The notes under the pieces are model-generated. The model saw nothing but the letters and a program-made list of their open reading frames with translations, was not told where the DNA came from and ran no database searches. A DNA stretch of 64,000 nt, taken from Botryllus schlosseri (Eukaryota). The stretch spans positions 5,396,001 to 5,460,000 of the forward strand of contig CM119372.1 in NCBI GenBank assembly GCA_051294905.1. The letters run 5' to 3'. Below, in pieces: positions 1 through 58,790 of the stretch. Position numbers and translations under genes: made by a program. How positions within the stretch are numbered: the stretch's first letter is position 1; every line of letters begins with the position of its first letter.

Positions 1-3000
1 CGCTGCAGGCAAGAACACTGAAATGATGGTGGTGCACGTGCTCTACACCGAACTCAACGGAAAGCCTGTCAATTACGGGTAACTTTTCGCTCCCGCGCAG
101 CTCGAATCTACAACTACTACGAACATACTTGTACAAACTACTGTATTCTCGAAATGCGCAACTAGAACCAGAGCTACGCATTTTTCAAAACTCGCAACTA
201 GAACTCGAACTAGAACTAATGACCTTTAAAAGTCCAGCCACTCTAAAACACAAATAACTAGATCGGATTCCGAAGCAACTCTTCATAAGGACTGGTTTTC
301 GAGTTTGAAATGGGAGCGGATTCGACCCCCTAAAAATCACCCCTTGGCTACGCCACTATCAATAGTGATGACTCTGGGCTAGCATTGGCTGGAAAAACAT
401 CACGCAACAGAACACCGGTACCGCGATTCACCCCAAACGACAACACTGGTTTCTAGTTCTGCAATTCAGTTTTTGTAAATGGGGAACTAGAACTAGAACT
501 ACTCAAATAATATAGTTGGTTGACGGCCAACTAACTTGATTGGTAGTTTGTACGAGTCTGACTACGAATCCTGTGATTGACACAGAACGCATGGTACAGT
601 CGAATGTGTAATGTATATATTTCTGATTGCGATACAAATTTGCGAAAGTAGAGCCACATTCGCGCCGCCAGTGCAACTCATAGTTTCTTGACAGATCGAG
701 TCTGGGCAACATCCAAAGCAGCGAGACGAAGCGGCTTTCCGGGATCATCAAACCTAAGGTAAGGCCGACGCTTTCGGATACGTGACCTCGGCGAGAAACG
801 TGATTTCGACTTCGTTGTTCACGATTTTCCAGTTTCCGCTCTCGTGGCAAGTCACGTTCTCCTGCAATGGAAAGCGGGTGTACCGTGATCGCGAGATAGC
901 TTAGACGGAATTTTAGGCGATGACGTGTTATAGGTAGGGCGATACATATTGCACAATGACCCGAGTACTCGAATCTGAATCGAGTATCAATTGTAATTAG
1001 GGCGATTTTTTACATAAAAACGGAAAATTTTGACATTTTTTGATCTTAAAAAACTTAATTTTGACCAAATTTTGCCCTCATGTATGTAAATTAGGTGTTT
1101 TCGCATATAATGTTGGAATTGTACTACTTATCTTCAGATCTGGTTCGAACTTGCCTGTCCTTACGAAGTAGTTTGGCCTGAAAACACTTTTTTGACTTGA
1201 AAACTGACAAATTTTTACATGAAAAAACTTTATCTTAAGGAAATCTGGACCTATCAAGAATTCTGGTAGTTACATCACGCATTATGGTAGAAATAATAAA
1301 AATTTGTTGTTGTATACTACAACAACAGCAACAACAACAATGAGAGGTGTTTTGCTCTATTATCGGGTAGAAGGTGTCTGTCCTTACTAAGTGGCTTGTC
1401 AAAATATGGAGAAAGAACGTTCAACAGCAGCATTTGTTGGCTGGCAACACTGAAGTTGTGCGTACACTGCTGGTTACACAACCGCGTTGTTTCATTCTGA
1501 CAATGTTGTCTACTTCACAATTTTTCATCATGCGCTTATTGATATGAGAACCAATGTCAACGCAGTCTTGTTTCAGTTAGGATATTGCGGTACGTTGAGC
1601 ATAACACTATCTCAACCTATTTGTTGCATTAGACCGTTTATAATTCACAATGCGCAGACAAGGGTACAACGGTAGGCATATAAATAACTATGGTCGATTT
1701 ATTGCTGGCATATGGGTACATTTCGGAACCGGGTGGTGTCGAGATTGAATGTTTCTACCCTCACTGCGGTCATTCTCGGACAAGATGTTACTGCCGTCGA
1801 TCCATTAGTCTCAGGTCTACTTGGCGACATATGCTGGGCAAAACTTGATACGTCTTGATATGCCCCGACACCACGACAAGGTTACCTTCACTACTGGCTT
1901 ATCACAAGTCACCGGTACGCAGTCTTCGCCTTCCGACGGACATTCTTTCGGCGTGCATATCTCTTGAACCTCCACCAGCACTGTCTCGTTCTTGTCGAGA
2001 GAAGTGATTCCAAATTGGCCCACGCTGCGAAAAAAAGAAAGATTCGTTTGTCGTTTTGCTGGTTGACTCCGCTTTTATCTCTCTCACGGGTCTGTGGCGT
2101 ATTCCTTATCCATCAAGTCCACGTTGACGACGTATCTTTCGTAAGCGGCCAGGCAGAGCTGCAGATCGAATTCGCCTTTCATGTTGTCGTGAATGTGCAT
2201 CCAGTCTGAAACGGCGTCGGGAAATGCATTGTTACGCCGTGTGTGTTTGTGACTATGCGCCTATGCGTACTCGCAGGAATGCAGCCCAGACCGGAGCTGG
2301 AAAACTAGGACCAATAGAATTTCTTTAGCTTATCCAAATTAGATCAGAATTGTAATTATAGCTAAGAAGTTGTTACCAAGTTCGATTTGAATTAGAATTG
2401 TCGAATTTGCAATTACTTGGAAATTGAATTCGATTTCGGATTAGAATGGAGTAGGCTACAACAGAATTCACGTCACAAGACGTTCTATCATTTTGCCCCC
2501 CCCCTATCGCCCCCTTCGAACGCCAAATGCCCCATTTGTTATTTTCGCCCACTAGGGTATGGGGTGGGGGGGGAGGATATCGCCCGCGTTGGGAGCCACT
2601 GGTCTTGACTTTTTCTCAATTACTAGAGAATGGTGCCCTGAGGATGTTAGAGTGCTTTGTGGGGTGTGCAACATACTGGGGCGGAACTATCATACTACGA
2701 CATTTTGGCACTGGCCGTAACTCCCGCCCCAGAACACGCCAAGACCTGTGATGTTTCGGTGCACAGGCGACGGCGGTTTACATTTGAACCCTAAAATCAG
2801 ATACATCGGTGAAATCTTCGATATTAATATCTCCAGTCGCTGAAATCCATGTAAGTTGTGTTGAAAACCCTATGGCGGCCCAAGACCAGCCTTTGAAGGG
2901 GCTTGCCAAAGTGCTGTTTCGATCCTGGACAGGGGTACGAGAAACATTTCATGACAGCTCAAGAGATATTAGCGCTAAAAAGTTAAGAAACACTGCTCTT

Positions 3001-7232: not shown

Positions 7233-10200
7233 CTAACTCAACAGCTCGCATTTGAGCTGCGTCAACAGCTCTAGCGACTTTGACGTCGCGTCGGTCGAGA
7301 TCCGCGAATCGGATGAAGATTTCGAGTCCGGATTTTCTTTTCCACAAGCGGGGCGATTGTCGCTACATTTGCTTGAAGCCGGCGTCGATTGCGACTTGAA
7401 ACCCAACGGCATTGGCGACAAGGTCGATCCACTCGCGAACCCTGGCACGACGGAGGACGCTTGCTGGATTCCGTATTTCCTCAGGACGCGGTCGATGACA
7501 TCGTCACCCGATTCTGTGAGCAGAAACTCGGACGTAACAACTCTGCTCGAATGTGATTCGAGCACTAACTCTAACGATTCAAGTAGTTAAGGATGATCTA
7601 TTCGAACAGCGAAAAAACTCCTCACAATGCCAAATTTTAGGCTGATTTTGAGGGGTTCAAGGACGACGAGCTAAACATCATTTAGATTTTCGTAATCAGC
7701 TTTCGATTGATATCAAGTTATCAAATTTCGCCGCTCGGCAGGACAGTCTAAATAAATGGTGCCGTAAATTGCTTTTGGTCAAATGGAAATAATGACGTAA
7801 CCAAATCGCAGTGAGCCGTGAAATTTGTTTGTGTCCACACCATTGTAGGACACGATGATGGAATCCTCAAGTCCTTGATTGGTCGTACCGCACCACACGA
7901 TACATGCAGTGCAAAGTTACGCACGTTAGTAGAAACCCCACATCTGTGATGTCTTGAACAACTCGCATCATTTTCAGTGCAATGAAACAGCCATGGTCAA
8001 AAAAATACCATACCATCTTCAATGCGATATAGAAGTGGCATTACGTTCTTTGCAGTGGATCATAAAAGGGACGTATTTGACCTTTCCACATCTTTACCGA
8101 TATCACTTCACAATGAGCGATACTCGAGTAATTGACTCGAAGCCTTATACTAGATGGAAAATCGAATTACTCAGGCACTCAATTTTCCATAGCCCTAGCT
8201 AATTACCTTGATTGTCGCGTTCCGAGTCTGCGCGTGGCGATTTCGGAGGCTTGGAAGGGGGATCTTCAGCATATTTCGCTTGTGGAAATACGACACCCAG
8301 CCTTGGTTTTGTTTTTGGCTCTTAAAAATGGATAGCTCGTTAATCGGAGATATTTGAAGAGCGTGTTGGAGGTCCAGAACTTCAGAATACAATTGAATAA
8401 TATATTCATATAGAAATAAACCCGAATATTTTCGGCTGACACTTGTCAGGGGTAGTCGTCAGCAACAACTAGTAGAGAATTGAAAAAAGCATTGTATATC
8501 AACGCAAACAATCATATCGAAAAGATACCATATTTGGTGATAGGATTGTTGATGTACAACGTTCTTTTCAATTCTCTACTAGTTGCTGACGATTACCCCC
8601 GACTAGTGTCAGCCGAAAATATTCAGGATAATTATAATATAAATATATTATTTAATCGAAGGTAGGAAAAGACTTCATGGGTCTTACGTTTTCTTTGCTC
8701 CGTTTGATCTGCGTCTTCGTCGTTCATTCTGGCTGACAGACCTGCGACAAGCGAACAAGGTCATAAAGTGCTTAATGGTGTGCAGAAGTGGTCGAAGCAG
8801 TCATTGCTAGTATTCAAGAAGTAGTAACGTCTCAATTTCGACCCAAGTAGAGTAAAATGGAAGTATTCTAGGCCTAGTTTTCCCTAAAAACGGAAAACTG
8901 TCAGCTAGAATCAGAACGATAAAAACTTGCGAATGCAGTCCATGACTTCATATATACACGAAAATTTTTGTTTTGATAGTATTTTCCACTGCAGAAGCCT
9001 TAAAACCTCGATCGGTTGTATCGTAGCGTACGAAACATGTAATACAAACCACAAAGCTACAAACGTTAGTGTGAACGACACATCTGTGAAGTTGTGATCA
9101 AATTACAGCATTGTCACAAGGTGTAATGAAACCGGCTTGGTCGAAAAAATGCCTAGTATTGTTTATTGTAATGCAGAACTCGGATTGTATTCTTTGTGGT
9201 TGCATAAAAGGTAAATACTGTAACTTCCTTTCAAGATCATTCATACTGTCGTGACGTTATAATCAGCAACGGCACCATAACGAAATCTCAGTGTCCGACA
9301 ATGCCTGCTCTCGTGGCCGCAACATATATCTCTCCCATTCGATATTTTACCTTTGTCAGCATTTTCCTTGGCGTCGCGAAGCTGCGGGTGCGATGTTATG
9401 TGAGCTATCACTGTATTTGAGGCGTCCGATTCGCCCAGCGCGGATATGGCGCGAACATGGACGCGGTACTCCGTCGAATGCCTCAATCCTTCCAGCAAAG
9501 CCCGCGACTTTTCCCCGCCTACCATGCCTTTTGGGTGTCCGTTCACGTAGATTCTGAACGAGGCACAATCAGTATACAATGTAATAATAATAAATAGGGC
9601 GATTTTTTTGACCTTAAAAACAGGAGATTTTGACCTAAAAATTAGAATTTTTACATTCTTTGACCTTGAAAATCTTAATTTTGACGAAATTTGACCTAAC
9701 CTATGCCAATTAGGTGTTTTCCCACATAATGTTAGAATGGTACTACTTATCTTTGTTTAGGGTTGGAACTGTCTGCCCTTACGAAGTAGTTTCGTCTGAA
9801 AGAAAACCTTTTTTGCCTCAAAGACTGACAAATTTTTATGCGAAAAAACTTTATTACGAAATCTGACCCTATGAAGAATTCCAGCAGTCTACGCATTATG
9901 GTAGAAATTATTTAAAAAATTTGTAGTTCAACGAAAGATAGTTTTCTACAGAAAGTGTCTGTCCTTACTAAGTAGCTTGCCAAGAATGGAGAAATAACGT
10001 TCAACAGCAGCAGTTGTTGGCTGACAACACGGAAGTTGTGCGTAAACTGCTGGCGCCAAACCGTAGTTGCTTCATTCTGGCAATGGTGTCTACATCACAA
10101 TTTTTCATCATGCGGTTCTTGATATAAGAACCATGCAATGCCCATGCAGTCTTGCTTCAGTTAGGATGTTGCGGAACGTCGAGCGTAACACCATGTCAAC

Positions 10201-13200
10201 CTATCTGTTTCATTTGAATGTTTATGATTCACAATGAGCAGACAATGGGCCGTCTGTCTACAACGGTAGGCCTATAAAGTAGGCTACAAGCTGTAAAATG
10301 TCAAATGATAAGCTCATCGACAATGCAAAATGTACGATACAAACAAATTGCAGGTTGCAAAAAAGTTTTAACTTTGTAAAATATTTTGACCTAATTCTGA
10401 CTTTTTTTGACATGTCGAAAAAAATCGCCCTAATAATAATATATTGATATGGAAATAAATCCGAATATTATCGACCGACACTCGTCAGGGGTAATCGTCA
10501 GCGACTAGTGGAGAATTGTAAAGAATTTTATACATCAACGATTCTATCACTAAATATGACAGGGACGGCATAGAAAGTTTAGAAATTGAGGCCAACAGAT
10601 GGCTTACTGCACTATTTTTACACATAAACTCAGACAATTGGAGAATTAAACTAATTAGAGCCAAAATTCCCGTAATCTAATGGTAATCTAAAATGCTTCT
10701 ATGCTAATTCCAGTTCTAATCTAGTGTCTGGTTTCCTGTAAATGTTACAGAACAGAAGAACTGAATAGAGCGAAACGAGCTTGGCTCTGATTTCATGTGT
10801 ACGGCGCTTGATTACGTTGCATTTTGATCTAATTAGGGATCTTAATCAATTACTAGGTTTTTGCAAATTCAGCAATTCTGATCTAATTTGGAAATTTTAT
10901 TTTATTCAATTTTCTAGTTGTCCAAGTCTGTATACTAGGGTCGTTCAAAAGTCACTTTTTTCCCCGGATTCCGGGCTTCACTGCTTAAATTCTCGGGCTG
11001 TCTAAAAAAGGCTGCATACCAAATTTGGCTCAATTCCAACCGGCAGTCAGTTGAAATTTTATATTTATTAAAAATATTTTCAAATTGTACAGTCAAACCC
11101 ATGGAATTGTTGAGTTTGCGCACAAAAACGACGCAAAAGAAATTTTTGACGCAATTCCAACACAAAGAAGCGAAGTTACTTGAGTTTTACATCGGTAATT
11201 CAGGGATTACCCACCATTCAAAACTATTTTTGCAAAACCATAACTTTCAAACGCAACGACTTCGCTTCTACCGGTCGGAAGTGAGCAAAAATTGTTCTGC
11301 ATCGTTATTTTAGCCAACAAACTCATGGGATTGACAGTAAAATTTGAAAAAAAGATTTTTTTTTTTACTGAATTCAAAAATTTCAATTGGCTCTGCTGCG
11401 GTTTGTACTGGTTTGAATTAAGCCAAATTTGGTGTCCATCGTGTTTTTAGGCCACCTGACAATTTAATCAGTGAATGCCCGGAATCCGAAAACAAAAGTT
11501 AATTTTGAACAACCCCACTGTACACACACACTCCTCTTATTGGCACAAACTAAGTTGGCGGATTTTGATTAAACTTCGACTCCAGTACACACAAATGAAA
11601 CAATGAATGGTCACTCCAACACAACCAATTACAATATAATTTTCGAATTTCACAATCCATCCTACCTGTATCCGACAATCTTCTCCACTTTGGCCTCTTG
11701 GCCGTGTTTATCGTACATTTTCGACGGGTGCCAACGCAATATCACGCTGCTGTGTCCAGAGGAATTGGCTACCTCGCTTACCCCGGCCCGCAAGGCATGG
11801 GGTGGCGTAGGCACGCCCGGCATAGGGGCCGACGCAGGGTCTCTGGGGGTTTGACGCCTCATCACGAGTCTCATCGCCTGCAATTGTAACACGGCGATGC
11901 AAAGAGTTGGATAGTGAATGATGGTAGGGAACGGAAATTTTGTTTCTATTCTACTTCAACAGTATTTTGACGTTGAAATACTAAATTTTGCATACTTTAT
12001 ATTGTCAACATGTCAAATGAAGTATATTTTGGAAATTTGACACCACACGACTGACGCATACAGTCGATCACTTTTCGCACCTCGACTCTTCAGAATAGAG
12101 ACTTACCTTTTGATTTTTTCTTCTCTGCCCGGGAAGGATGTTCAACTTGTGAACGAGCTCCGGGTTATTAACAAACATTTCTCGGACTCCAAACACTTTC
12201 GGAGGCGAAGTCTTCTTGAGTTTGGTCTCCGACGATGCGATACCCTCCATTAGTTTCTCGTGAGGAGTTAGCGTGTCAGGCGCCGGCAAAGACAGGGTCC
12301 TCCGCGAAGCCTGTAACACAAAACAAATCATAAATAAATCGCAACCCCCCAATCGCGACAACTTACCGGTTTCAGCCTGGACCTCCATTCCTCGGAATTG
12401 ATGTCGGGAAGCACCATTTCTTTGAACTTCTTTTTGGCCACCATCTCCTGCTCCTTGGAAATCTCCCTGGCCAATTTCTTTCGACTCGCGTTCCCCGACT
12501 TGGCGAGCGTCATCGCGTCTTCCACTTCCGCGAACAGCGACGAGCACACGCACAGCGAGTTGACCCGAGTCTTGGCGTGACGGTCTTCGCAAAACTGGAA
12601 AAGAGCACATGCTCGCGAGTTTGCGGATTCGGTTAACTTTACCACCGACCATTGTTATGTTGCGTCATGTCACATGTCATATCGAGTCACAGTGTATTTT
12701 GACTTGAGCCAAGTCAAGTCGCTCGAATTTTGGGGTGACTCGGCTCAAGTAAAGTTCTTTTGGTGTGTTGAATAGCATATTCATATTGAAATTATCCCGA
12801 ATATTTTCGGCTTACGCTCGTCAGGGGTAATCGTCAGTAGATAGTTGGAAAGAACATTGTATATCAAGAATCATATCACAAAATATGACTATCATGAAAT
12901 TTTGAGTATTTGGGGCAAAGAAAGCGCTTTAAGCTAAATGGTAAACTCCTTCAAACTCCTTCTGTCGACACAGACTTGGTCGGCGTATTTTGATACAAAT
13001 CGACTTCAAGGCACACAAATGAAAAGGTGGACGACCTCTCCAGACGACGCGAAATCTGTCGTCTCTGTAATTTTTCGCACAAGCAGAATTATACAATTGA
13101 TTAGTATATTCGTATTGAAATGAACCTGAATATTTTCGGCTGACACTCGTCAGGGGTAATCGTCAGCAACTAGTAGAGAATTTAAAAGAACAGCGTATAA

Positions 13201-16200
13201 CAACAATCGTAGCACAAAATATGACGTCACCAGCACGAAATGTCGAATACGAGAGCGTTCAATGTACTATTTTTAGATGATACACGAAATCTTTTTGACA
13301 CAGCCTTGGCTGGTGTATTTCGATAAATTTGACAAGCAAAATTTTGACAAGTGTACCACCCCGTTACAGTGACATACTCACCGATATTACTTGGTCGATA
13401 TCCGCCCTTTTTTCGACGTCGTCCTGCGACATATCGACCAGAAGCGACTCCAGCTCGTCTGACAGTTGCGGGGCTTCGTCTGCGCTCATTTCCCAATCAG
13501 CTGCTGACCAGAGCACCACCGACAAGCTGAACACCGACGACTGAAACCAAGATATTATGTGTAAAGTTAGTTGTCCGAAAGCTGTTGGTCTTTGCATTGA
13601 TGCAGACCGAGTTGTCCCTGAAGTAGCTTAACAGGCGTGACGGCTTTGTAGTCGCTCAAACGAGAGAGTGACATAAGAATAGACATTGCGTAATTATTAT
13701 GCAATTATCATAGTATGCACAATGCGTAGAATGTAGGGTTACCATCAGTGTTGCCAACTCCGGATGGAAGAAAATCGCTAAAACTGGTGTCAAAAATCGC
13801 TAGATGTCGCCAAATATTGAGAAAAAAGCGCTAAAAAATAGCGCTAAATCTACATTCATTGCTAAAGGTGTTAAATTGAACCATTATTTCAATGCATTCT
13901 TCTCAGCTATATTTCAGTCGTCTGGGGCCAAAGTCACTTACCATATTTTTAGTTCATAATACGTAATATAGTCATCTCTAAGCGGGACAAAACGAGTAGT
14001 GCATTTCGATAAAGCAGATCGCTTTGCGCAATGATCGCTATACGTGACTGCTGACCAGGTTTGCAGGCATAACCGCGGAAATGCGCTTGACTTCTTTTCT
14101 AAACTGTGTTGGAGTACTTGAACACGACATGCGACTTGACACACTTATACACGACATGCGACTTGACCCGACACTACACGACATGAACCGGGTTTGCCAG
14201 CCGCTATAAGTAGAGACATTGAGAAAATAATCTGAGGACCAGCCCGGGGTATGAAATGTAATTAATCTAGTCCTGAACCAAAGCCAGTGTCACACTGATT
14301 CCGACAACACGAACTAAATTCTTGTCAAGACAATGGAACGACCTCAAAGCAGCCCCCAAAGTCTGAAAATCGGCATTGATCAGAACAATCGCTGGACGAA
14401 ATTGGTCATTGTTATATTCAATGTGTTGCAGCGGTGCCATTGTTGGAGCAATGCCGGTTCTCAAACCTTTGCCGGCTCTCAAACCTTGAGGGCTATTTCG
14501 GGGTGCATGGTTCCATTGTCCGGACGAGACCCCACTTCGTATTCTCGAAATCACCGCGAAAACTATCTTTCGATCATGGCCAATTATATTAAATTTCAGC
14601 GCTCAGGTCGCCAGATGTAGCACTGCCAATTATGCTACTCAGCAAGAAGAGACACTCTTTGCCCATGCGTAACCGCGAGGAGTTGCGTATCTCTACTATC
14701 CAAAGTCACTCAACTATGACAAATCGTCCGAACGTATTTTCATGGAGCAAGAAATGTTCCACAACTTGATGTTATGTCAGCCAAAACTTATCTTTATTGG
14801 TTATTTCCGGTAAAAAAAAGCGCTAAATAATCGCTAAATACTTTTTCAAAAATCGCTAGATTCATCGCTAGGCGCTAGATCCATATTTTTTGGCGCTAAA
14901 CCGGATGAAAAATCGCTAGATCTAGCGCTAAAATCGCTAAATTGGCAACACTGGTTACCATACGTCCTCTTTTAAGAGGATTTGTCCTCTTTTTTGACTT
15001 TTTTGAAAGTGTCCTCGGAGGACGCCCTCTAGTCCTCTTTTTTGAAAATTTAGGTCAGATTTAGAGCAAATTGCGAGTGATATGCCGTAAATTAGGACAG
15101 AAGTGACGCTCCGGCGGGTATTTCGGACTGAAAAACGGTGATTTTAGCTCTGGGCGGAAAAAAGATCTTTTTTTTTTTTTAGTCATCCACCTAGCAATGC
15201 GGAAAGAAAAACGGTATTTTGAGCTCTGAGCGGAAGAGATGACCTTTTTTTTTTTTAGCCAACCGATCACAAAGTGGGAAAAATTCACGGGTTTTTGAGA
15301 ATTCTTCTCTGGTTTTGCAAGACTCAAATTTCTGAAAAAGTGTCCTCTTTTTAGATTTTCAAAATATGGTAAGCCTGGTAGAATGTGGTATTGTAAGCTT
15401 CATAACAGATATAGCGGCGTTAACTTAAGACCATATTATGTTGCCAGCAACTAGCAACTGTAACCACTTGCGAATTTTCAGTGAGATTGGCCGAGTGGCG
15501 GTGCCGCTAAAGCCAGGCACCGTGGTGGGCAAAGTCGTCACTCTGGCACGAGCCATCAAACCCCCAAATCAGGTGTTCTTGCCTACCAAAAAATGCACGA
15601 AATTCTTAATGGTAAGATAGAGATACCATATGTGCTCTTTTAAGAGGATTTGTCCTGTTTTTTCATTAAATCAAAAAGGTTCCCCGAGGATGCCCATATA
15701 CCCTTTGTTTTCGCAATTCGCAATTCTTTTTTGAGTGTAAGGCGACTATACAGAGATGACCAATAGAGGTCGACGCCTCCATAAAATACACGTGATAATT
15801 AGCTTTATCTGGAACTGGCAAATAAAAAGGTCCACTGTCCGCGGATGCCAGATTCGAGGTTTTTTTTAGTCAATCTACCGGGTGATCAGCATTTTCACCA
15901 TATTTTATAACATATTTCCCTCTTTTTGTAACTTGAAGAAAGTGTCCTCTATTTGGACCTTAAATATGGTAACCCTATGTAAGGTAACAATTGATGCATA
16001 AATATGATTGGCACAGGTTGCGTCCATGACTGCTGCTATATCCCCTAATGCAGTGCTATTCAAAGGTTTGGTTACAAAAGTACAATTAAATAAAACACGC
16101 ACTGATTACCTTGACAGTCGCCGGATGCCTTTTGTCGAGCACTTCCGGAGCGAGATACATATCGTCAACTTCCTCCGAGTTGGTGTCTTTGAACTCAACG

Positions 16201-19200
16201 CGGCCGTCTTTCCGCAAAAACGCGTTCTCCAGTGCAAGATATCTGAGAAATGGTTAGCAGTGTTGATTTAGGAGGTATTGTATGTAGACAGGGTTACCAT
16301 ACCGTGTTTATTTTTCAGATTTGTCCTTATTTCGAAGTGCTGTGTCTCAAAAAAAAAACGCACCATCCTTATTTCTAAGATTTGTCCTTATTTTGAAGTG
16401 CGGTGTCTCAAAAAAAACCACACCAGCCTTATTTCTAAGATTTGTCCTTATTTTGTCTTAGTTTTCGACACTGAGATCGTGACTATGATTAGACGAAAGT
16501 GATGACCATTTTTTAGCCATCATCTTACCACAAAGGGGTGTGAGTAGATGATATCAGGTGGCGATTGTACACTTTTTTAGTCACCAGTTCACAAATTTCA
16601 CGATTAAACTACTGGTTTTTGGTTGACGATAGTAACCCTGCAGGTAGGTCTGATTATTCAAAATTTCATGCCGGTGACGTCATATATTGCGATACGATTG
16701 TGAACATACAATGTTCTTTCCAATTCTCTACTAGTTGCTGACGATTATCTCCGACCAGTGTCAGCCGAAAATATTCGGGTTCATTTCAATATGAATACAC
16801 TATTCAACCGTAGGGTAATATTTTTTTAACAAACAAGATACTTTCAATATTTCATTTACACTACACGAAACCTTGGTTATCTGGATCTCGGCATCGAAAA
16901 ACATGTTGCTAATATTCACGGAGAGCCCTTGCTGTCAAGTAATGATAGAACCTCACAGTGGTCTCAAAGCGCTACGAAATGGTGATGGTCCAGAAAGAAG
17001 AAATTAATTCGGATGGCGTGTAAGTGGCAACATTTTGCGGCCGCGTAAAGGTACATACTCGAGCTTTTAAATTCATTAATACTGTTACAAAGTCATATTA
17101 GGCGGTACTGGGATATTCGATTCGAAGCTTAATACTCGGCTCGGAGTTGAATCCCCAGCCGATAATTGCATGGTTGAAAGTTTGTATAAATTTACATTAG
17201 CACGGATCATCACCAGGCTACAAGTTACGTCAGGAACATATTTACAAATATAGATTTGTGTAAACGACTCACTTTTTTACTGGCTTATTCTTTATGAAGT
17301 GCCCGGCCTGCTCACAAATAGCCCACAGCTCGTTCTCCGACAGCGCGGATTTCAGTATCGAGAGAGCGTTCTGTGAAGGCACTGTAAGTAATTGGAATTT
17401 CACAATAGAAACGGAGTGTTTCACCTTTAACGATATCCTGGGCACGTCGCCTCGGGCACTAAGAGCTGGCTCAGGAGCGGACTGTAATGTCTCAATCCTT
17501 TCGATTTCGGCCAGCTTCTGGTCGGGCGACACTACTGATGCGTCCTGAAGCTGAAATTGATAAGCAATTTTGATGTTGATGGTGGTAAGTGGAAATAAGA
17601 CATGGGACCAGCACCATTACAAATACACGAAACAGATTGAATAAAATCTGTAAATATAACCTTTCCCAATGACAAAAGTAGAAACATTTTGTTTTATCAA
17701 TATCCCAAGAGCTTCTTGGAGGTACATAGCTGCAATATACAATTGAATAATATATTCATATTGAAATAAACCCAAATATTTTCGGGTGACACTCGTCAGG
17801 GGTTATCGTCAGCAACTAGTAGAGAATTGGAAATATATTGAATATATTTTGCGATACGATTGTTGATATGCAATGTTCTTTCCAATTCTCTACTACGATT
17901 ACCCCTGAAGAGTGTCAGTCGAAAACGTTCGCCTGATGAAAACGAAGAGGAGTAACTTACAACTTGGCTATCAGACGCCAATTTCAGTTCGTCCTGCTCG
18001 GAAGCGTTAAATCCGACCGGGGCCATCTTTTCCGTGAACGAAAGCATTGCTTCTTGCAATTGCATAACCTTTGAAAACGAGCGCATGTGTTAACAAAACA
18101 GTTCCGACACCTGATCAGAATTAGCGGTCGCTTGTTACCCTAATCCTAACCATCACCTAACCCGAATATATTAATGCATATATACAATATACATATTCGG
18201 CGCTAGACTGTTGATAAACATAGTCCTTTTGAATTCTCTACTAGTTGCTGGCGACTACCTGTGACAAGTGTCAGCGTAAAATATTGGGTTTACTTCAATA
18301 GGAATATAAGAAGAGCTTCTTGGAGTTAGAGGTATAGAAATTAACTGTACAATTGAACAAAATATTCATATTGAAATGAACCTGAATATTTTCGGCTGAC
18401 ACTCGTCAGGGGTAATCGTCAGCAACTAGTAAAGAATTGGAAAGAACATTGTATATCAACAATCGTATCATAAAATATGACGTCACCAGCATGAAATTTA
18501 GAATTTAAGAGAGCGTTCAATGTACCATTTTTAGATGGTACACGAACTCCTTTTGTTGACACAGCCTTGGCTGGTTTATTTTGACGAAAGTTGACTGCAA
18601 GGCATGCGGTGTGCTCATAGGCTATTCAGTGAAATTTTCATTTTAGAATATATTAATACAATATTGATGCATCACTATCATAATAATAACAGTTATTACA
18701 TTTCTAAATACCAAATTCAACATGCCGAATTTATCAAGTGCGGTATATCATAATGCACTGATAACCGCGATCTCCAGTTACCTGTTCTTGCAAGACGTCG
18801 ATGGTCTCTCTCATTTTCACGTTTTCTTTACGAACGAGAGACGAATCGCCTACTTTTCCCTGCCCGGGTTCTTCTTCCGCAGAACTATGTGCCGGATTCC
18901 TACACGGAAACCAGAAACGCTCGGTGAAAAATCGACAACGGAGCCAACCGGAAATAAAACTCACCCCTCTCCGTCAGTGACCAGGGTGCCTCTGCCTTCG
19001 TCTGTGTCCTCCGCGGCTTGATCGCGTTTGCATTCCGTAACAGGCTTCTCGTCTCGGACTTCTTTCCAAGACGCGTCAGCAATTTTCTAAGAATAATGCC
19101 TTATCAACGCGATAATGCACGCGAGATCGAACAAAATTTTCGAAAAATGTTACTAAAAAGTGGGCAGTCCTTCAAAACTTTATTTTCTGTGAGCACAACT

Positions 19201-22200
19201 CTTTAAAAATTCAAGAGATACGTTAATTCACTTGGATTAAAAATTCACCGAGACACAAATGTAATAATCGCATAATTTTCCGAGTAGATTTGCGACAGGG
19301 GTTCCCGACCAGCCCTTTTCATGATAACATTTGATAAAATTTATCATCTCCAAAAACACTAGAACAGCAAACTAATTCCCTATCCAGATATTATCAGAGA
19401 AAAAATAAGCTCAAACATCACATTAACTGAATATGCCATAACTAATTAATGTATTGTTTGTGTATTATCATGACTCGAAACGAAATTTTCAAGTCAATTT
19501 CAAGTCATCAAGTAATCGGTATCGACATGTGTGAGCAACCAGTCATGTAACTGTTGTACACAGCCTCGTAAGTCAGTAAGTCACAAATAAATTGCCCCGA
19601 AACGAAGTGATTAAAGCTTTCGTTGTAGTATAGGCTACTACTAGTACAGTTCTACCAATAGTTCAGTGCTTTCGGCTCGGTGCTAATCTTAACGAACCCC
19701 TTGCATAATTTCAATCGGATAGATATATAGTGTTATACATCTATATTGCTCGTCAACAATTGGCACAGGCTTAAAGTGTGGGTAGGTGGGTGATGGATTG
19801 TGTACTGCATCATATCAATTGGTTTCAACTTTCTGAAGTTTTATGTTTTGTTTTCTATTTGTCGGACAGTTACCGACGTGGCCTAGTAGTTTTACGTATA
19901 TGCGAATCGTACAATGCCCCGTTGAATGTGTAATTAACCCGATATTCGCAACTCGATTAACAATTAATACTAAATCAATCTGTACTTCAACTGTCTTGCA
20001 AGATGCAATGGCTTGAATCTTGCCTCTAACTTTGTGACTTGACTTGACTCGAGTCAAAATATACAATGACTCGAAGGTATTGACTTGATCCCAACACTGG
20101 CCGAAGCTATATGTATGGAACCTACACCACAGCACAGACAAAGCAGCCTCTCTTACTTTCGGTGGAGCTGCTTTTTCGTCGGAAGAATCCGCAGAGTCCG
20201 AATCCTCGTCGTAATTCAAGGCGCCGCTCTCAGACAAACGTCGCGGAGAATTTGTTCGCAACACGCTGGCTTGAGAGGACGGATTCTTCGCGTTCGCCTT
20301 CTTAACGTTACGTCTCGGAGAGCTCGACTTACTCCTCGGTCGCCTTGTAACAAAGGAGCTCATAGCAGTCGGCGTTGGTACTCAAGTAGCGAGTAAAGAA
20401 GCAAAACCGTAAATTTCTATTCGTCACAAGCAGCAGCAGAGATATCTAAGACACGTCAAAACTAATTGCAGTAGGAAACAAAATTTACACGAATTCTTAA
20501 GAAAAAGCACTGTTTTGACATATCACTGCATTAAACAATCCGTTCTGCAAGTCATGAATATATTTCAACTTACCGGTCAGACCTTTTCCGACTTCTGTCG
20601 TCGACTTTATCGTCACCTGTTCGTTTCTGGACCATCCTAGAAATCCACCCGATACAATGACATGAGTGTGCTCTCAAAATTTCATTACATCATACCGTAA
20701 CTGCGACCAGATATATCGAATCGCTTCCGTTTGCAAGTCTCTCATTTTCTTCTCGGTATCCAGACGATCTTTCAAACTTTGCACTTCGTGACATAACACG
20801 CTGCGTTACGTTTGAAACGTATTCAATCGCGGACTTGTTAAAAAATGGCGATATCACGACACAAATCGTTTTGAATACCTTATGTATTGTTCCGCTCTTC
20901 TGGACCTCAATTCCTGACGAATCTCCACCACTTTAGGGTCTAGTTTCCTCGTCTTATACCCTCTCCATATTGCCTGCGATATTCGTTCATTAGAAGACTG
21001 TCACATATAGTAACGAGTGATCTTACTTGAATTTTAGTGGCCGCTTGTACGTGTTTCAAATCGACAGGCAGCTCTGATAACAGATAAACATCATTACACA
21101 GGTCGAAATTAAGGTTAAAATTAATAATGCGAGTCAAGTGTGGAGAGATGATTTCGTGAGTACTGAAATTATACGTTCCTTGCCAGTAAAAGTTGATTTA
21201 TCATCGAAAGTTATAGTTTTGAAGTGGTTGTATTTTCCACTGTGGTTGACTTGAAAATCCGTGGTGGGTTGCACTTATTTCTCACAGGAGTTGCGGTAAA
21301 AAGTTGCACTTAATTTTCACAAAAGTTGCACTAAAAAGTTGCATTTGTGGGCAAGTTCCTTGAAATTATGAGGGTATGAGATACCCGAATCGCTCCGTAT
21401 GCAAGGCACTGTAGCAAAACTTAATGTCGGTGACTTCAACAAAATCAACAGCCTGAAAAAATTGACTTGGTGAAATATAATTTTCGGCAGTCTGGCCTGA
21501 ATGTCCGTCAAACCAGAAAGGACCTCAAATCTAAACGGCAGTGAAATAATCAAGCGGCCTATTTACATATAGTGTCAAATATTTCCAGTAAAAAGTCGGT
21601 TGCGCAAAAAATCGAAAAAACTAGCAAAAAGTACTGCGTCATGATAGGCGATACTCGAATTCGAGCAGAAGCTTAAAAACTCAACTCGGAATCAAATACC
21701 GCAGGGACTCGATTTTGATCAGGCCTAGTCGGACATAAAGAAGAAGAGATTATACTTAGGGGAAGAGTTTGCAACTTTTTTTTACAGCTTCCGCCAGCTT
21801 CCTAAATACTCGTGTGATATGTAGAATGCTGCTTTAAGCTGTTCGAAGGAATCTTATAGTTCAACTTTTGTCCATTTTTTTTTTACATGCAACATTTTGC
21901 AACTTTGTAGATTTTGGTGATGTACACGGCCAAATTCAACTGAAATTCAGTAAAATAGCACTGAAGTAACGCTCTTACGGGTATTTCGGGAGCTGAGCCG
22001 GAAAGTTGACCTTTTTTTTTAGTCAATCAATAGAGAATGCGGACGGAAAACTGTATTTCGGAAGTGGAGCTGAGAAGTTGACCTTTTTTTTTAGTCAACC
22101 GAGCAAAATGTGGTCTTTTAGCGCAACTTTTTGTGAAAAAATAAATGCAACATTTTACTGCAACTTTTTTCAAAAATAAATGCAACTTTCCACGGATTTA

Positions 22201-25200
22201 ACTGCAACAAAAACTTGCTCTAATTATGACCAAAGTGGAAGTAACCATATCATGTTCAATATTGATTACCTTTCTTTTGCTCTGTTGGAAGTTTAGGCAA
22301 GGCGTCTTTCGGGCTACGACGTACAGGCACCGGTACTGGAACAAACCCGACAAAACGACATTATCAAATGTGAATTTCAACGAAGAATTCAGCCACTCAC
22401 TCATCGTGCCGTGCCGTTTTTGATTGGCTTCCACGTTACACTGTATCTTCGACGGCTGCTTGGTCACGCTGGTTTTTGGCCTGCCTTTACTGCAACAATT
22501 ATGGTAATCAGTTATAACAATGAAGCAGATATAAGCTATAGCTTATCAGTTTGTTAATAATATAGACCTTCATCGATTCAATATTCTGAATGATTGTAAC
22601 GTAAAAACTAAAAATAACCGTTTAAAGGACTTGCAGCTAACTGCCATCCAAATCTATCAAGTGCGAACGTACAAACACAAGCTTTTATTAGAAGAGCTTC
22701 TTGGAGGTACCACTGAATAGTATATTAATATTGAATATTTTCGGCTGACACTCGTCAGCCCGACGTCACTCGTTCAATTCTCTACTAGTTGCTGACGATT
22801 GCCTCTGACGAGTGTCAGCCGAAAATATTAGGGTTCATTTCACAATGACTAAGCTTCTATTAGCTATTATTAAACAAATTCTATCATTAGATAATACTAC
22901 CACACCCGCCTATAGGTCTAATACCACTTACTTTGCTGAAATAATGGTTGTCAACATGTGAACATGTGAACCAATGAAAAACACCACCAAAACTATCCCA
23001 ACCCTGAAATTGACCCTTACATCTATCGTAACCCCAACCCTAACCTAATCCTAATCTGACCCTAACCTGAAATTCAACCTGCATGCTCAAGTGTTAGATG
23101 CCCAATTGTCGCATGCTATTATGTAGCATGCTTAATACATTAAAATTGAGATTAATCCAACTTATGTTTCTGCACCATGTCATAATATAGAGTTCATGGC
23201 CTACTTTGGAGTTAGCGTACGTCACAACGGTGCGATGATATGGCCTACAACTCGTTTATGAACAGCAAATGTACAATAATTACAGCTGTGTTGAAACATG
23301 TACTACCGCAAATAAAGTCAGAATAATCTTACCTTGATGTTGGTTTCGGTGTAGGATACGGCACGACGGAATTGTGACTTCGTCGCAAGTAAGGCCTGGG
23401 ATAAGGTTTCGGAGGAGGGCAGTCCGAGTCTTGGTCCTGTTTTTCACCGTAAAGAGACTTTTTCAAGCCATCGTCGAGAGGTTTGATCGGTCTCATGTCG
23501 TACTCCTCGTACTTGGTAGGCAACGAGCAATCCAATTTCGAGTCTACGGCGAATAGGCAAGCGCAAATTCAGTTGCAAGAGGATTAGAGCAGTACTTTTC
23601 AAGCGCAGGCCCGCGCACCAGCGATGGTTAGTGTCAAATATACTGCCAACCAGCCATACCAACAGACAACAATATCATAGCTCGATTGCAAAATGCAAAA
23701 AGTTGAAGGGTTGGGAATTAAAGAAATGAAAGATAAAATTTTAAATTGATTCGAGAGACTCTTGGAGGTACAGAACTTCAACATCCAATTGATCAATACA
23801 TATTGAAATAAAATCTGATTTTCCCACATTATGTCGTAGCCTATTAGCTAGCCTACAACTAGTTCAAGACCAGTTGTACATGAAAGCTGAAAATCTAAAT
23901 TTTCGTCAAATCTGGACAGTACCATTTAGAGACATTTGGCAGTGTAAGAGAGGCTGCAAAAAGCAAAGTTCGCAGTTCTTTCAAAAGAAACTAAACAATC
24001 AGCCTTTAACGCCTCGCAGAAACTACAATAGAACCACACATAACATGTGTATCGTGAGAAAGGCAGCAGCAAAAAAACATCATCGAATCAAAGATTCCAA
24101 TGTTGGCCTTTGAGTTGTGTGCCGAAAAGGTAGAGAACCACTGAATTAGATAGAACATCCGCTCACCATCGCAAGGATGCAGAGGTTGAAAATCCGTGCT
24201 GTTCACCAACGTGTTCATTTCCGAACGTCGCAACGAAGCAGGCGAGGGCGTAAAATTTGCGGAAGCCGGCGCGTACACATTTTGAAATCCGGTCGAGTTC
24301 TCCAGAGAATCTCGCTCGGCTGGGCTGAGAGGATACTTTTTCGTGTACGCCCGCGCGACGATTGGATCGTAAACGTAACAGTATTTGTCGCCGCCGCCAG
24401 AAAAATCTGCGGTGCGGCGCAAATGCTCATTTGATGTGCGAATGGGGATATCAGATTTTCGGAAACCGTTATCGTGTGACCTGGATCCCTTTGGAATGTA
24501 CGACACGTCGTTGCCTGAAAGGAAGAACAGCGGAGTGCAATTAGCCGGATTCAGTCAGTGGTCAGTATCTAAGTACTTCAACTTTTATGGAGTAATCCAA
24601 GCGGGTTTCGACGGCTTTCACTCCTTAACTCAAGTGTTTATGATTTTACATCACTTCCACCTCTACCTAACAGATTTAAGCGGGGTTTAATGACTTGAGT
24701 CATGATTTTTTGGTGACTCGACTTGACTCAAGTCATTTTCTCAAATGCGTAAAATGACTCGACTTGAGTCAATTTGTACATTGACGAAATTGACTCGACT
24801 TGTTCTCAAGTCATTGTGCATGACTCGAATCAAGTCATATGACTCATGACTAGGACGGCCAAGACAGTCATGTCATTGTAACTTCTAGGAATAGTAAAGT
24901 CACCATATGATTGGTATTTCGTCTATTAGTCCTGATACTTGGAAAATAGAGCCAGAAATTGTTAAGACTGAGGAAGATTACGATATGATGAATGCAAGCC
25001 ATTCTATATCACTCGAGCAGAGTTCATTCACTTGGACTCGGACTTGACTCGAGTCAAAACTATAAAAGTGAGATTGACTTGTGACTCGGAACCTTGTGGC
25101 TTGTGACCAGCTGTGTAATTAGTCAATATGCATCACGGACATACATCTTGCAGCTTTTCGAAAAGTACTCACCTTCGATCAACTGCTAGACGTATGCGAC

Positions 25201-29450: not shown

Positions 29451-30542
29451 ATGCACACACACTCAGTCATCAATAGCTCACCGAAATTTGTTTGTGAATC
29501 GCCTCTTCGTGAGCGAGCCATTATTCACATATCGGTAGGCCTAATTGAATAAAATCCATCTAAATCTATATTTTAATATACTGTAACTGGCATACGTTAA
29601 TGTGTATAGAGACGTTAATCAAGCAAGATTATCTGATCCTTGTTGCATTGACATTTGCATATAGATTTACTCCGAATAATCTTTCAGAATTTAGAACATT
29701 GTCAGTTTTCAAAACATCTCTACTCTCCCCATTTTGTTGCACCTTTCCCTCCTTTTCTTGGCTACGCGCCTGTATGTCACTATCAACCATAGGTAGTTGG
29801 AGGTACAATCAATATGATAAGTGTTACGGTATCACATTCAGTCGCTCAAGTCAAAATTATCACGTAAATACAGGCTATTATACCTTTTACTGCATGCCGT
29901 TTTAGGTTATTCTGACTCCATAGATCTATATTCCCATTAAGCTTACAGTATCGCATTCTCTGCTGAGATGCAACCAGTAATGATGCACATCGGCCACTGC
30001 AAAATCCATGCACCTTTAGACTCCCGGTTGGAATGTGGTCAGAATTGCTTATATCGCAAAGGCAGGGGTAGAATCAGTTTATACTCTATTCATTTTACGT
30101 TATGTACTAAAAAACTTACTTCTTGCATCTTTAACGGTGTCTCATCAAGCCAAAGATCAATATCAGAGGATTACGCAAACCGAATCCGCCACTTACCACT
30201 GAATTAATCAGTTAACTTCAGTTAGCTCAGTTTGTTTTGAACTTTACCGGCTGAACCGAAGCGATTGATGGGTGACTGACCTTTGACATTGAATAATATC
30301 GATTATAGGCCTCGTTTGAGAATGAGAAGGGTCACTTCGAAATAGATGTTTAATCACCATCACGAGATAAAAAAGATAATTTATATGCTACAAGATTGGA
30401 TAGAACCATATGGATCTTGACCATATTAAATCCAGACGGATCCCTAACGTTACAAGTCCAATGGCCCAGCCAAGGTGTGACTTTGTTCTCCATTTCCCAG
30501 GCGAAAATTAGCTAAACTGCCAAAGAAACATGCCTTCATAGG

Positions 30543-30982
30543 TAGGGTTACCATGTGTCCTCTTTTAAGAGGATTTGTCCTCTTTTTTAGATAAATTGAA
30601 AGTGTGCTCGAAGGACGCCAAAATGTCCTATTTTTTGAGAAGTTGTCATCTTTTTCTAGAAATGCGCTCAAAAACGGGACTCCGATGCAACGAGCGCCAG
30701 AGTTGGCAAGACAATCAACGAAAAATACAGCGCGAGCAGGGATGAGAAAGATGACCTTTTCTTCTTTTTTTTTCGGGAGTCGGGCAAGGTGATGACTTCT
30801 TTCAGTCACCACAGTACTATCATAGCAATTTACAACGTAGCTGCAACGTAGCTACGTTGTAAATTGCTATGGTACTATTATTGGTCGAAAATTTTTCAAA
30901 ATCACCAGCTTTCTTTTCTGATATTAGAGTTTTCATAATTTTTGAAAAGTGTCCTCTTTTTCGAATCTCGAAATATGGTAAT
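30543..30982. mobile_element. MITE family C copy carrying a 51-bp hairpin insertion
   Basis: tagggttaccatgtgtcctcttttaagaggatttgtcc ... aaatatggta. Confidence 0.8.
30821..30871. repeat. Perfect 22-bp inverted repeat (minimal MITE-like)
   Basis: catagcaatttacaacgtagct-gcaacgt-agctacgttgtaaattgctatg flanked by the direct repeat gtactat. Confidence 0.9.
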
Positions 30983-58379: not shown

Positions 58380-58790
58380 GATATCTTTTAAGAGGATTTG
58401 TCCTCTTATTTTACTTTTTTTTTAAGTGTCCTCGGAGGACATTTCAAATGTCCTCTTTTTGAGAATTTGTCCTCTGTTTTGAAAGTTTTGGTTAAAATTA
58501 TGTTAAAATCCGACTGAGATATACGAAATCAGTACTCAAGTTACATTCCTCCGGCGGGTATTTCGGGAGTTAAGCCATAAAGTTGACTTTTTTTTAGTCA
58601 ACCAACGGAGAATTCAACAAAGTGTACATTTTCTAGAGTCGAGTCGGAAAATGACCTTTTTTCTTTTTTTAGTTAACCAACTACAAACTCGGAATAAATT
58701 TATCAATTTTCCGGATTCTATTCCGGTATTGTAAGTCTGAAAATGTTGAAAAAGTGTCTTCTTTTCAGATTCCTAAAATATCGTAACCAT
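58380..58790. mobile_element. Diverged MITE family C copy
   Basis: ttttaagaggatttgtcctc...gtgtcctcggaggac...cggcgggtatttcgg...aaatatcgtaaccata. Confidence 0.8.

Follow-up and report, generated by a model that had tools for sequence, protein, structure and literature searches.

What hammerhead-like motifs are doing in the introns of a protein-coding gene, and how a dozen of them came to lie so close together, is the question raised by a 64-kb stretch of the Botryllus schlosseri genome (contig CM119372.1, positions 5,396,001 to 5,460,000; hereafter, the window, with positions counted from its first letter). The first-pass annotation of this stretch, made from the letters alone, described about 12 minimal hammerhead ribozyme motifs confined to the introns of one gene, attributed them to a non-autonomous family related to Penelope-like elements (PLEs) or retrozymes that had been amplified locally, and suggested that the sense copies could dimerize and cut the host introns. 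The analysis described here indicates that the 12 motifs are very probably the remains of nine dead-on-arrival, 5'-truncated insertions of one abundant PLE family, and that they represent a version of the hammerhead of the PLE pseudo-long terminal repeat (pLTR) with an unusually short stem II.

A fuzzy search of the whole window with the 25-nt motif, allowing up to 6 substitutions on both strands, recovered exactly 12 copies, at the same 12 sites as annotated, and 0 further copies in the remaining ~49.6 kb (Table 1). The loose pattern CTGANGA-N5-30-GAAA matched the window 20 times, compared to 4.76 +/- 2.13 matches in shuffled sequences, and 0 of 100 shuffles reached 20. The core boxes (CUGANGA, GAAA and UH) are unmutated in 7 of the 12 copies, five of which are on the minus strand; these are the five core-intact copies that had been noted to lie sense to the host pre-mRNA.

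The source of the motif was identified by searching the genome (495.5 Mb in 219 contigs). The solo arms of the window have sequence in common that reaches beyond the motif toward the interior; one such inner piece (window 13215-13340) is 96% identical to many genomic copies, and in two loci (L061 and L062), the arms are located 1.7-2.6 kb apart and enclose two head-to-head reading frames with the motifs YVDD and VVYEFKC..YVGRT. Because the arms run into frames that combine a reverse transcriptase (RT) and a putative endonuclease (EN), they are the 3' ends of a retroelement and not transposon termini. A protein search of the genome gave 9,483 first-look candidates, with open frames of 857-863 amino acids (aa). 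The unit of the element is 2,683-2,692 bp long and forms head-to-tail arrays with periods of 2,683 or 2,692 bp as well as inverted pairs of arrays. In one such array (L069), the motif is found at 159 and 2842, flanking a frame at 163-2733; the motif is thus embedded in the pLTR junction, ~105 nt past the stop codon and 14 nt ahead of the first ATG of the next unit. A master element with an RT, a putative GIY-YIG endonuclease and the same terminus as the repeat, of the kind that the first-pass annotation had proposed to search for, accordingly exists in the form of a 2.68-kb PLE with an 857-863-aa frame, and the Penelope-like nature of the repeat is borne out by the colinearity of the arms with the 3' end of this element.

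The 857-aa frame yields a match to RVT_1 in Pfam (E=1.1e-7) and 888 homologues at E<=1e-10; the 120 homologues that were listed are mostly 600-870 aa long, and many are encoded on contigs of ~2.7-3 kb. The D282-K283-G284 (DKG) residues, a motif described as diagnostic for PLE reverse transcriptases (PMC8557442), and the residues of the GIY/YIG region are invariant in 11 of the 11 aligned sequences, and a GIY-YIG-like motif, VVYEFKC..YVGRT..R..R...H followed by a later E, is recognizable by eye in the open reading frame (ORF). Two results count against this domain assignment: the GIY-YIG domain of the ORF produces no match to PF01541 or any other Pfam family at E<=0.01, and among the precomputed domains of the 120 listed homologues, PF01541 is found in 2 only, with PF26215/PF28514 present in most. 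The insertions themselves show a PLE-type structure, with tandem pLTRs, inverted 5'-truncated neighbours and heavy 5' truncation; this agrees with published accounts of PLE insertions (PMC8557442, PMC11167929 and PMC4209133), which mention loss of the 5' part, tandems that are partial, a truncated copy lying inverted alongside, a tail of 30-40 bp and a hammerhead within the pLTR. The family resembles the canonical EN-containing (EN+) PLEs, Penelope and Poseidon (Evgen'ev & Arkhipova 2005 and Arkhipova 2006, via Craig et al. 2021, PMC8557442), in its ~2.7-kb unit and its single ORF with DKG motif, RT and putative C-terminal GIY-YIG region, and shares with them the pLTR tandems, the inverted truncated copies, the optional ~40-nt tail and the pLTR hammerhead, except that the published hammerheads have a much longer stem II. 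The CX2-5CxxC linker of Neptune and Nematis appears, by eye, to be absent from the present family.

When the window was compared by BLAST with one PLE unit followed by 90 nt of the next unit (the unit positions given here refer to this query), all arms mapped to unit positions 2382-2762. The motif-bearing sequence resolves into nine 5'-truncated units, namely six solo arms and three head-to-head fold-backs, that begin at positions 2382-2658 of 2683; no RT coding sequence was detected in the window with this query. Besides the motif-less fragment J (Table 1), the only addition made by the full-element query is a weak 77-nt piece at 11524-11600. The proposal of a non-autonomous family is thus not supported for the solo arms, which are truncated copies of an autonomous element, with truncation points spread from unit position 2382 to 2658. 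The units are between 74.7% (unit C) and 94.6% (unit D) identical to a young copy and so arrived at different times.

The family motif, GCUGAC-GAUU-ACCC-CUGACGA-G-U-GUCAGC-C-GAAA-AUAU-UC-GGGU, contains the complete CUGANGA/GAAA/UH core with G10.1 and C11.1, a 4-bp stem I and, in the place of stem III, the 6-nt palindrome AAUAUU, so that two copies could jointly form stem III. With these features and the location at the pLTR junction, the earlier recognition of a minimal type I hammerhead core stands. The resemblance to the minimal PLE hammerheads (Cervera & De la Pena 2014; PMC4209133) extends to the type I topology, the short stem I, the G10.1-C11.1 pair, the existence of U3-A8 variants, the palindromic word for stem III that implies dimers, and the thousands of copies scattered singly or as inverted pairs by truncated PLEs. 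In the published forms, however, stem II measures 4-8 bp and one nucleotide stays unpaired between A9 and G10.1, whereas in the clade studied here this extra nucleotide is missing and stem-loop II is 8-10 nt long (1-3 bp), GUGUCAG being conserved in it. In the family motif, the segment g(N7)c that had been read as stem II provides 1 bp only (G10.1-C11.1) and falls outside the published PLE hammerhead descriptor. A descriptor scan of the whole PLE unit detected no other, canonical hammerhead; when the genome was searched for versions of the motif in which stem II is longer, 35 sporadic indel variants were returned, none with a stem and no subfamily; and a pattern scan of viral contigs produced 119 stretches, of which four pass a loose hammerhead filter and 0 are PLE-like. 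The motif is probably this clade's version of the pLTR hammerhead, in which case the palindromic stem III would need a second copy to pair.

To place the motif in an evolutionary perspective, we compared five lineages: this family (O), a second family in the same genome (Z) and metagenome relatives with 47-67% aa identity (X, Y and V); 80 metagenome loci that encode relatives of the ORF were scanned with a hammerhead descriptor. Canonical PLE hammerheads (stem II of at least 4 bp, the extra nucleotide and a palindromic stem III) were found in 22 of the 80 loci, which serves as a positive control for the descriptor, and 21 of these 22 loci are at 28-40% protein identity. The short-spacer form was detected in seven loci, at 47-65% protein identity, with degenerate copies in two loci (L135 and L099). 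As a separate observation, the L135 contig carries a short-spacer motif together with a canonical PLE hammerhead that is present on both strands, as if two PLE families that differ in hammerhead type were nested there. The clade spacer is 8-10 nt long, with a stem II of 1 bp in the present family and 2-3 bp in X, Y and V. Family Z has 409 motif matches genome-wide (for example, G000:C1:12450770-12458909), with a tandem spacing of ~2.7 kb; most of its copies have the core UUGAAAA (U3-A8), and subfamilies with UUGAAGA or CUGAAGA also exist. The spacer of Z, GUGUCAGCUC, is 10 nt long, and its palindrome is AAGCUU.

In all five lineages, U4-G5-A6, A9 and GAAA are invariant, whereas N7 varies and H17 may be any of C, U and A. 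The nucleotides at positions 3 and 8 covary, being C-G in O and Y and U.G or U-A in X; in family Z, a count by eye of the first 100 places listed gave U..A 53, U..G 31, C..G 15 and C..A 1, the search pattern having been restricted to Y and R at positions 3 and 8, respectively. Stem I differs between lineages yet pairs in each form (ACCC/GGGU, GCCC/GGGU, UGUCCC/GGGAUG, CAUACU/AGUAUG and ACAG/CUGU; 4-6 bp). Stem III is palindromic in O, Z, X and Y (AAUAUU, AAGCUU and AAAAGCUUUU) and is an imperfect palindrome in V, with a 3-bp stem and a 2-nt loop. In an alignment of six O and X sequences, that is, two lineages, 95.1% of the cells pair, compared to 27-47% with slid partners, and the upstream helix, stem I and stem III each contain one two-sided pair change; 7-11 of 500 shuffles attain the values observed, in what is a small sample of six sequences from two lineages. 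This comparison leads us to conclude that, in the active elements of the clade, the motif appears to evolve under hammerhead-like constraint and that its stem II measures no more than 1-3 bp.

A number of observations weigh against a working ribozyme, in addition to the reduction of stem II to a single pair in the family motif and the loss of the unpaired nucleotide after A9. Nearest-neighbour folding assigns +0.1 kcal/mol to the hammerhead pairing compared to -16.2 kcal/mol for the minimum free energy (MFE) fold, in which small hairpins bury the box and the cleavage site and the stem I pair probabilities do not exceed 0.001. Rfam reports no hammerhead at the gathering score, and relaxing the threshold to E<=10 brings up none in a 15.5-kb stretch or in the 121 nt that surround the best copy, so the covariance-model search recommended in the first-pass annotation returned nothing of the kind; its sole matches, all weak, are a mir-2513-like hairpin, snoZ119, sR55 and sR11. 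Among 36 old arms elsewhere in the genome, which were picked by likeness to unit A, the core is kept at 93.7% compared to 92.0% for the other positions, and the boxes are kept in 16 of the 36; this near-equal retention of core and flank points to neutral decay of dead copies. Finally, four RNA-seq runs with the same species label, aligned to a tandem junction (L072), reveal no position where many molecules start or stop, and in run X17, the depth across the site does not fall (46/45 to 68/77 per strand). RNA depth is near zero over the body of the ORF and reaches 40-77 on both strands in the last ~400 nt; given that 97-100% of the reads continue into unlike sequence, these reads come mostly from truncated copies embedded in other transcripts. 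In run X19, 6 reads have adapter right after the presumed C17, and 4 reads each have it at three other places; we give no weight to these. Since monomeric copies are not expected to cut, the RNA-seq end test is a weak one.

The best-surviving alternative takes these results at face value: the motif would not be a working ribozyme in this clade, now or ever, its words would serve some other role in the pLTR, such as promoter sites (TGACG half-sites by a full TGACGTCA) or hairpins recognized by the RT or EN, and the likeness to the hammerhead would be a relic. A stem II that is almost gone, competing hairpins favoured by about 16 kcal/mol, the silence of Rfam and the lack of an RNA-end pile-up at the site in the runs above are all compatible with this explanation. 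So are several findings on other PLEs: in the anole, according to PMC11167929, hammerhead mutants left PLE insertion in vitro unaffected and, likewise, no reads started or ended at the hammerhead site; Naiad PLEs are described as thriving without canonical hammerheads, some with core words only (PMC8557442); and PLE promoters are reported to be located in the pLTR (PMC6765202). What the relic explanation does not account for is the pattern of conservation: all 11 core nucleotides are kept, N7 is free and G is avoided at position 17; C3-G8 has given way to U3-A8, C..A being hardly ever seen; in four to five lineages, pairing in stem I and in the stem III palindrome survives two-sided changes; and neither X nor Y conserves the hairpin (box 2 with GUCAG) that competes in family O. 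We therefore regard a mere relic as possible but unlikely and retain hammerhead-like constraint as the favoured reading.

With stem II shrunk to G10.1-C11.1 and 0-2 further pairs, a pseudoknot may stand in for it. Loop II has a complement upstream, the last letter of which is 8 nt away from the core; the matching words are GCUGAC/GUCAGC for families O and Z, UCUGAC/GUCAGA for lineage X and GCAUU/AAUGC for lineage V. The complement is 6 bp long in O, Z and X, the sixth pair being G-C or U-A, and 5 bp in V, where the letters are wholly different at the same 8-nt offset; in lineage Y, there is only a 4-bp CGAC/GUCG at an offset of 11. The pseudoknot hammerhead was reportedly found by Breaker and co-workers in 2015. 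In its crystal structure (Zhan et al. 2024; PMC11300833), a 6-bp pseudoknot replaces helix II and G10.1-C11.1 remains. The PLE motif is similar in that stem II is cut to G10.1-C11.1, the parts follow each other in the same order and the loop could pair over 6 bp with a segment that precedes stem I and is connected to it by a short linker. In the solved form, however, a helix IV of 5 bp presents the partner in its loop, and the linker is A-rich and engages in a triplex (PMC11300833), whereas in the PLE motif, helix IV is at best a weak 4 bp (AGUU/GAUU in O or CAUU/GAUG in X, by eye) and the linker, GAUU or GA, is not A-rich. The solved form is also monomeric, with a normal stem III (PMC11300833), and the pairing in the PLE motif is predicted from complementarity.

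Support for the pseudoknot is slender. When the upstream 30 nt are shuffled, the observed run is reached, per 20,000 shuffles, 341 times for O, 370-449 for X, 1,720 for V and 5,710 for Y; O, Z and X are homologous and do not count as independent in this comparison; and the MFE folds differ between lineages and lack the proposed helix. The likeness to the pseudoknot hammerhead is best treated as a lead rather than a demonstration. On sequence grounds, we tentatively suggest, as a real possibility that stops short of a favoured conclusion, that in this PLE clade (two families here and at least three metagenome lineages) stem II may have been replaced by a single pair and a loop pseudoknot of 5-6 bp, with a dimer still needed. 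A search of the full-text literature, the coverage of which excludes Lunse et al. 2017 and most subscription journals, returned no description of a pseudoknot, or of a stem II as short as 1-3 bp, in a hammerhead of this kind of element.

How the truncated copies were formed can be read from their ends. The insertions stop beyond, not at, the predicted cleavage site, at two discrete points ~40 nt apart, 31-38 nt or 75-79 nt past it; both end classes are present in the window, in 13 other copies and in 18 sampled genomic fold-backs. It is because the insertions end downstream of the predicted cleavage site, at two fixed points, that the truncated copies all carry the motif. The two classes match the two internal RT start sites of the anole PLE, for which the tail was described in vitro as the stretch between these sites, on RNA uncut by the hammerhead (PMC11167929). 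By analogy with Frangieh et al. 2024, reverse transcription would start internally on uncut, longer-than-unit RNA and thereby generate the tail. In unit F, the match of the plus arm to the element ends at the predicted cleavage site (unit 2684), with no tail end reached; the stem III word of this arm, AACGUU, is palindromic despite two changes.

The fold-backs show a recurrent layout. In the 18 sampled cases, which were picked by likeness to unit A, the arms begin at approximately unit 2580-2590 and 2595-2608; in nine of them (L002, L003, L005, L007, L010, L017, L023, L024 and L026), as in unit A, the longer arm has the short tail, with the short-tail arm of these nine starting at ~2578-2592 and the long-tail arm at ~2592-2607. 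The junction falls on the palindrome TGACGTCA (unit 2582-2589), and repeats of ~10 nt resembling target site duplications (TSDs) flank whole fold-backs in four loci (L012, L016, L017 and L018; by eye), which implies that each fold-back is one insertion event. Such a layout would result if snap-back recurred at one point, but also if there were a family of fold-backs that is copied whole. The second scenario, which comes close to the non-autonomous family of the first-pass annotation and in which the short fold-backs (A, F and perhaps I) belong to a non-autonomous, PLE-mobilized family, draws on the recurrence of the arm layout and the shared tail pattern just described, on the 73-84% identity of the sampled copies to unit A over its full length, on the ~10-nt repeats around whole units and on the valid 3' end that a fold-back would offer on either strand; in addition, a 2026 preprint derives animal retrozymes from PLE pLTRs (10.64898/2026.07.22.740005). 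The shared layout, however, is partly built into a sample chosen by likeness to unit A, the palindrome at the junction is a likely recurrent point of snap-back or template switch, PLE insertion commonly yields truncated copies in inverted orientation as a by-product (PMC8557442), nothing more than truncation is seen in the six solo arms, and no diagnostic substitutions specific to fold-backs were noticed in an informal comparison with autonomous copies. On balance, a separate fold-back family is doubtful. The likeness to the non-LTR animal retrozymes (elements without long terminal repeats; Li, Clavereau & Pollet 2026) goes as far as a PLE-related, non-coding nature, the presence of a hammerhead and possible mobilization of the fold-backs in trans; the retrozymes are head-to-tail tandem monomers that give rise to circular RNAs, in contrast to the solo or head-to-head truncated ends seen here, and the window contains no tandem monomer array of the retrozyme type.

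Two additional features of these sequences deserve mention. The palindrome, in the form (G)TGACGTCA(T), resembles a cAMP response element (CRE) and is present in the 3' untranslated region of the PLE at window positions 13221-13230(-), 16674-16683(+) and 18477-18486(-); a fourth match, at 61494-61503(-), lies outside any recognized PLE piece, making four matches compared to 0.17 expected, and TGACG half-sites are found within the two CTGACGA boxes. In fold-back A, the hairpin at the centre (8472-8579, plus strand) weakly matches the mir-2513 precursor family in Rfam (36.3 bits against a gathering score of 89; E=5.8e-4), and intronic fold-backs could yield hairpin RNAs.

The gene that harbours most of the copies was delineated by homology. 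An exon-like frame at 17269-17616(-) finds a single 807-aa homologue (P0001) with KIND, PF25523 and fn3 domains, and tblastn with this protein delineates 12 exon blocks of a KIND and FN3 protein gene, which is encoded by the minus strand and extends between 19086 and 7236 (Table 1). Units A-H are located in the introns of this gene; the first exon with a match has unit I and fragment J on its upstream side. The claim that the copies are confined to the introns of one gene thus holds for 10 of the 12 copies (8 of the 9 units), which lie between mapped exons; the remaining pair, 22758/22805, may or may not be intronic. Units C and D alone occupy ~560 of the 775 nt of one intron.

The concentration of copies does not call for local amplification, as had been proposed. 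The exact 26-nt motif occurs 4,294 times genome-wide (2,170 + 2,124), compared to 0 for the reversed control; the expectation is 0.125 exact motifs per 14.4 kb, and 3 are observed. Similar clusters exist elsewhere: among the first 100 places listed, which cover 20 Mb of contig 1, there are at least 4 groups of 3-5 exact hits within 15 kb. PLEs are reported to insert preferentially into or near earlier copies (PMC6765202), and this habit, together with the genome-wide clumping and the spread of ages among the window copies (75-95% identity to a young copy), indicates repeated insertion rather than local amplification. The copies entered the host introns at different times and are decaying neutrally.

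Whether the host gene has taken over the sense copies for co-transcriptional cutting of its pre-mRNA can be judged from their condition. The five minus-strand copies keep the core boxes, and two of them, 12824(-) and 13153(-), are 329 nt apart in one 775-nt intron, a distance that could permit dimer pairing. Every one of the sense copies, though, is damaged: A replaces G1.1, the neighbour of the cleavage site, in 13153(-) and 18409(-); the spacer of 12824(-) differs and its stem I is 3/4; 17799(-) is altered in the loop; and 22758(-) is missing the 5' strand of stem I. The copy that best retains stem I and the upstream complement, 22805(+), is antisense to the gene and upstream of it. The orientation of the copies is mixed (7 minus and 5 plus), old copies decay alike in core and flank, and retrozymes are reported to be depleted from introns (10.64898/2026.07.22.740005); furthermore, the long intramolecular hairpin of a fold-back would compete with the ribozyme fold. 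With damaged sense copies, neutral decay and hairpin competition, cutting of host introns by the window copies is unlikely, and a takeover by the host is highly improbable. The idea of dimerization in cis followed by intron cutting gains nothing from the four RNA-seq runs either, in which no pile-up of ends was seen.

The weakest alternative, a non-autonomous DNA transposon of the miniature inverted-repeat (MITE) type with terminal inverted repeats (TIRs) of ~150 nt and hammerhead-like words present by chance, is hardly credible: the ~200-300-bp units are near-perfect palindromes (the arms 8392-8472 and 8576-8656 are 84% complementary), a 206-bp unit has 3,744 first-look genomic candidates and TSD-like repeats surround the units (by eye), but the arms extend inward through the C-terminal coding region into a whole RT-EN frame, the solo arms show graded 5' truncation, the copies terminate at two fixed 3' positions of the kind known from PLE tails, and no transposase frame is found between separated arms in the window. 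We had initially favoured this interpretation because the arms at 8.4 kb and 22.7 kb are near-perfect palindromes with thousands of genomic relatives, and dropped it once the inner arms were found to run into RT-EN frames; the TIR of a DNA transposon, which the first-pass annotation had named as the finding that would speak against it, did not hold.

Table 1. PLE-derived units and motif copies in the window, and exon blocks of the host gene
Feature	Window position	Strand	Unit positions	Motif box start	Remarks
Motif copies, minus strand (n=7)		-		8449, 10488, 12824, 13153, 17799, 18409, 22758	
Motif copies, plus strand (n=5)		+		8599, 16751, 17905, 18261, 22805	
Unit A	8345..8656				fold-back of two 5'-truncated PLE 3' ends
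Unit A, minus arm	8345-8503	-	2607-2762	8449(-)	long tail; core box mutated
Unit A, plus arm	8529-8656	+	2588-2715	8599(+)	short tail; core box mutated
Unit B	10435..10560	-	2586-2711	10488(-)	solo; 80% identity; GAAA changed to GATA
Unit C	12768..13096	-	2382-2714	12824(-)	oldest; 74.7% identity; includes C-terminal EN coding remnant; boxes intact; spacer altered to GCGTAAGCC; stem I 3/4
Unit D	13090..13327	-	2481-2721	13153(-)	youngest; 94.6% identity; head-to-tail against unit C; sole difference from family motif, G1.1 to A
Unit E	16655..16807	+	2562-2714	16751(+)	solo; 86.9% identity; box mutated to CCGACCA
Unit F	17699..17931				fold-back
Unit F, minus arm	17699-17833	-	2624-2758	17799(-)	long tail; loop change
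Unit F, plus arm	17844-17931	+	2589-2684	17905(+)	
Unit G	18192..18307	+	2588-2705	18261(+)	solo; 80.5% identity; 3' end meets 3' end of unit H; motif heavily mutated
Unit H	18303..18603	-	2466-2758	18409(-)	solo; long tail; 86.7% identity; sole difference from family motif, G1.1 to A
Unit I	22708..22855				mini fold-back; upstream of first homology-supported exon
Unit I, minus arm	22708-22758	-		22758(-)	truncated within motif; without 5' strand of stem I
Unit I, plus arm	22770-22855	+		22805(+)	only window copy with stem I 4/4 and loop-II/upstream complement 6/6
Unit J	23760..23813	-	9-60		motif-less; matches tail/5' region only; beyond the range annotated at first pass
Host exons, first six	19086-18964, 18898-18779, 18071-18003, 17544-17293, 16253-16110, 13555-13379	-			tblastn
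Host exons, last six	12603-12355, 12310-12104, 11880-11665, 9558-9349, 8318-8223, 7535-7236	-			tblastn

The window also contains repeats of other kinds. An unrelated dispersed family is represented at 14953-15376, 30540-30981, 58384-58786 and 61684-62044 (66-86% identity), one copy being intronic in the same gene. The intron next to unit B holds a separate long fold-back element of ~600 bp at 10926-11527, made of nested inverted repeats (I10, I14, I15 and I18), and the inverted repeats at 21255-21346 and 22137-22208, ~800 nt apart and with AAAGTTGCA-like subrepeats (I7, I9 and I22), may be the termini of a small DNA transposon. In the intron upstream of unit E, ~88 nt are locally duplicated in tandem (16308-16455; 91% identity). 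Just upstream of the exon 19086-18964, on the strand of the gene, a weak match to a C/D-box small nucleolar RNA (19230-19355, minus strand; snoZ119, 23.7 bits, E=1.9) could be an intronic RNA of this class or a chance match.

PLE debris with hammerhead motifs in introns is of a known kind, here from a new family, and the almost missing stem II is its only unusual trait; the scattering of hammerhead motifs by thousands of truncated PLE copies was described in 2014 (PMC4209133). The family provides a clean natural record of the two fixed 3' ends predicted by internal RT initiation, with the inserted copies apparently deriving from RNA uncut at the hammerhead, and the data contain no evidence that the host gene is regulated by a ribozyme. 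In broader terms, a very successful clade of canonical PLEs appears to have kept every constraint of the hammerhead core with almost no stem II. If the loop II pairing is true, pseudoknot hammerheads would exist in animal retroelements, and the current descriptors and Rfam models would undercount PLE ribozymes; if it is not real, the clade would be a natural test of the minimum stem II.

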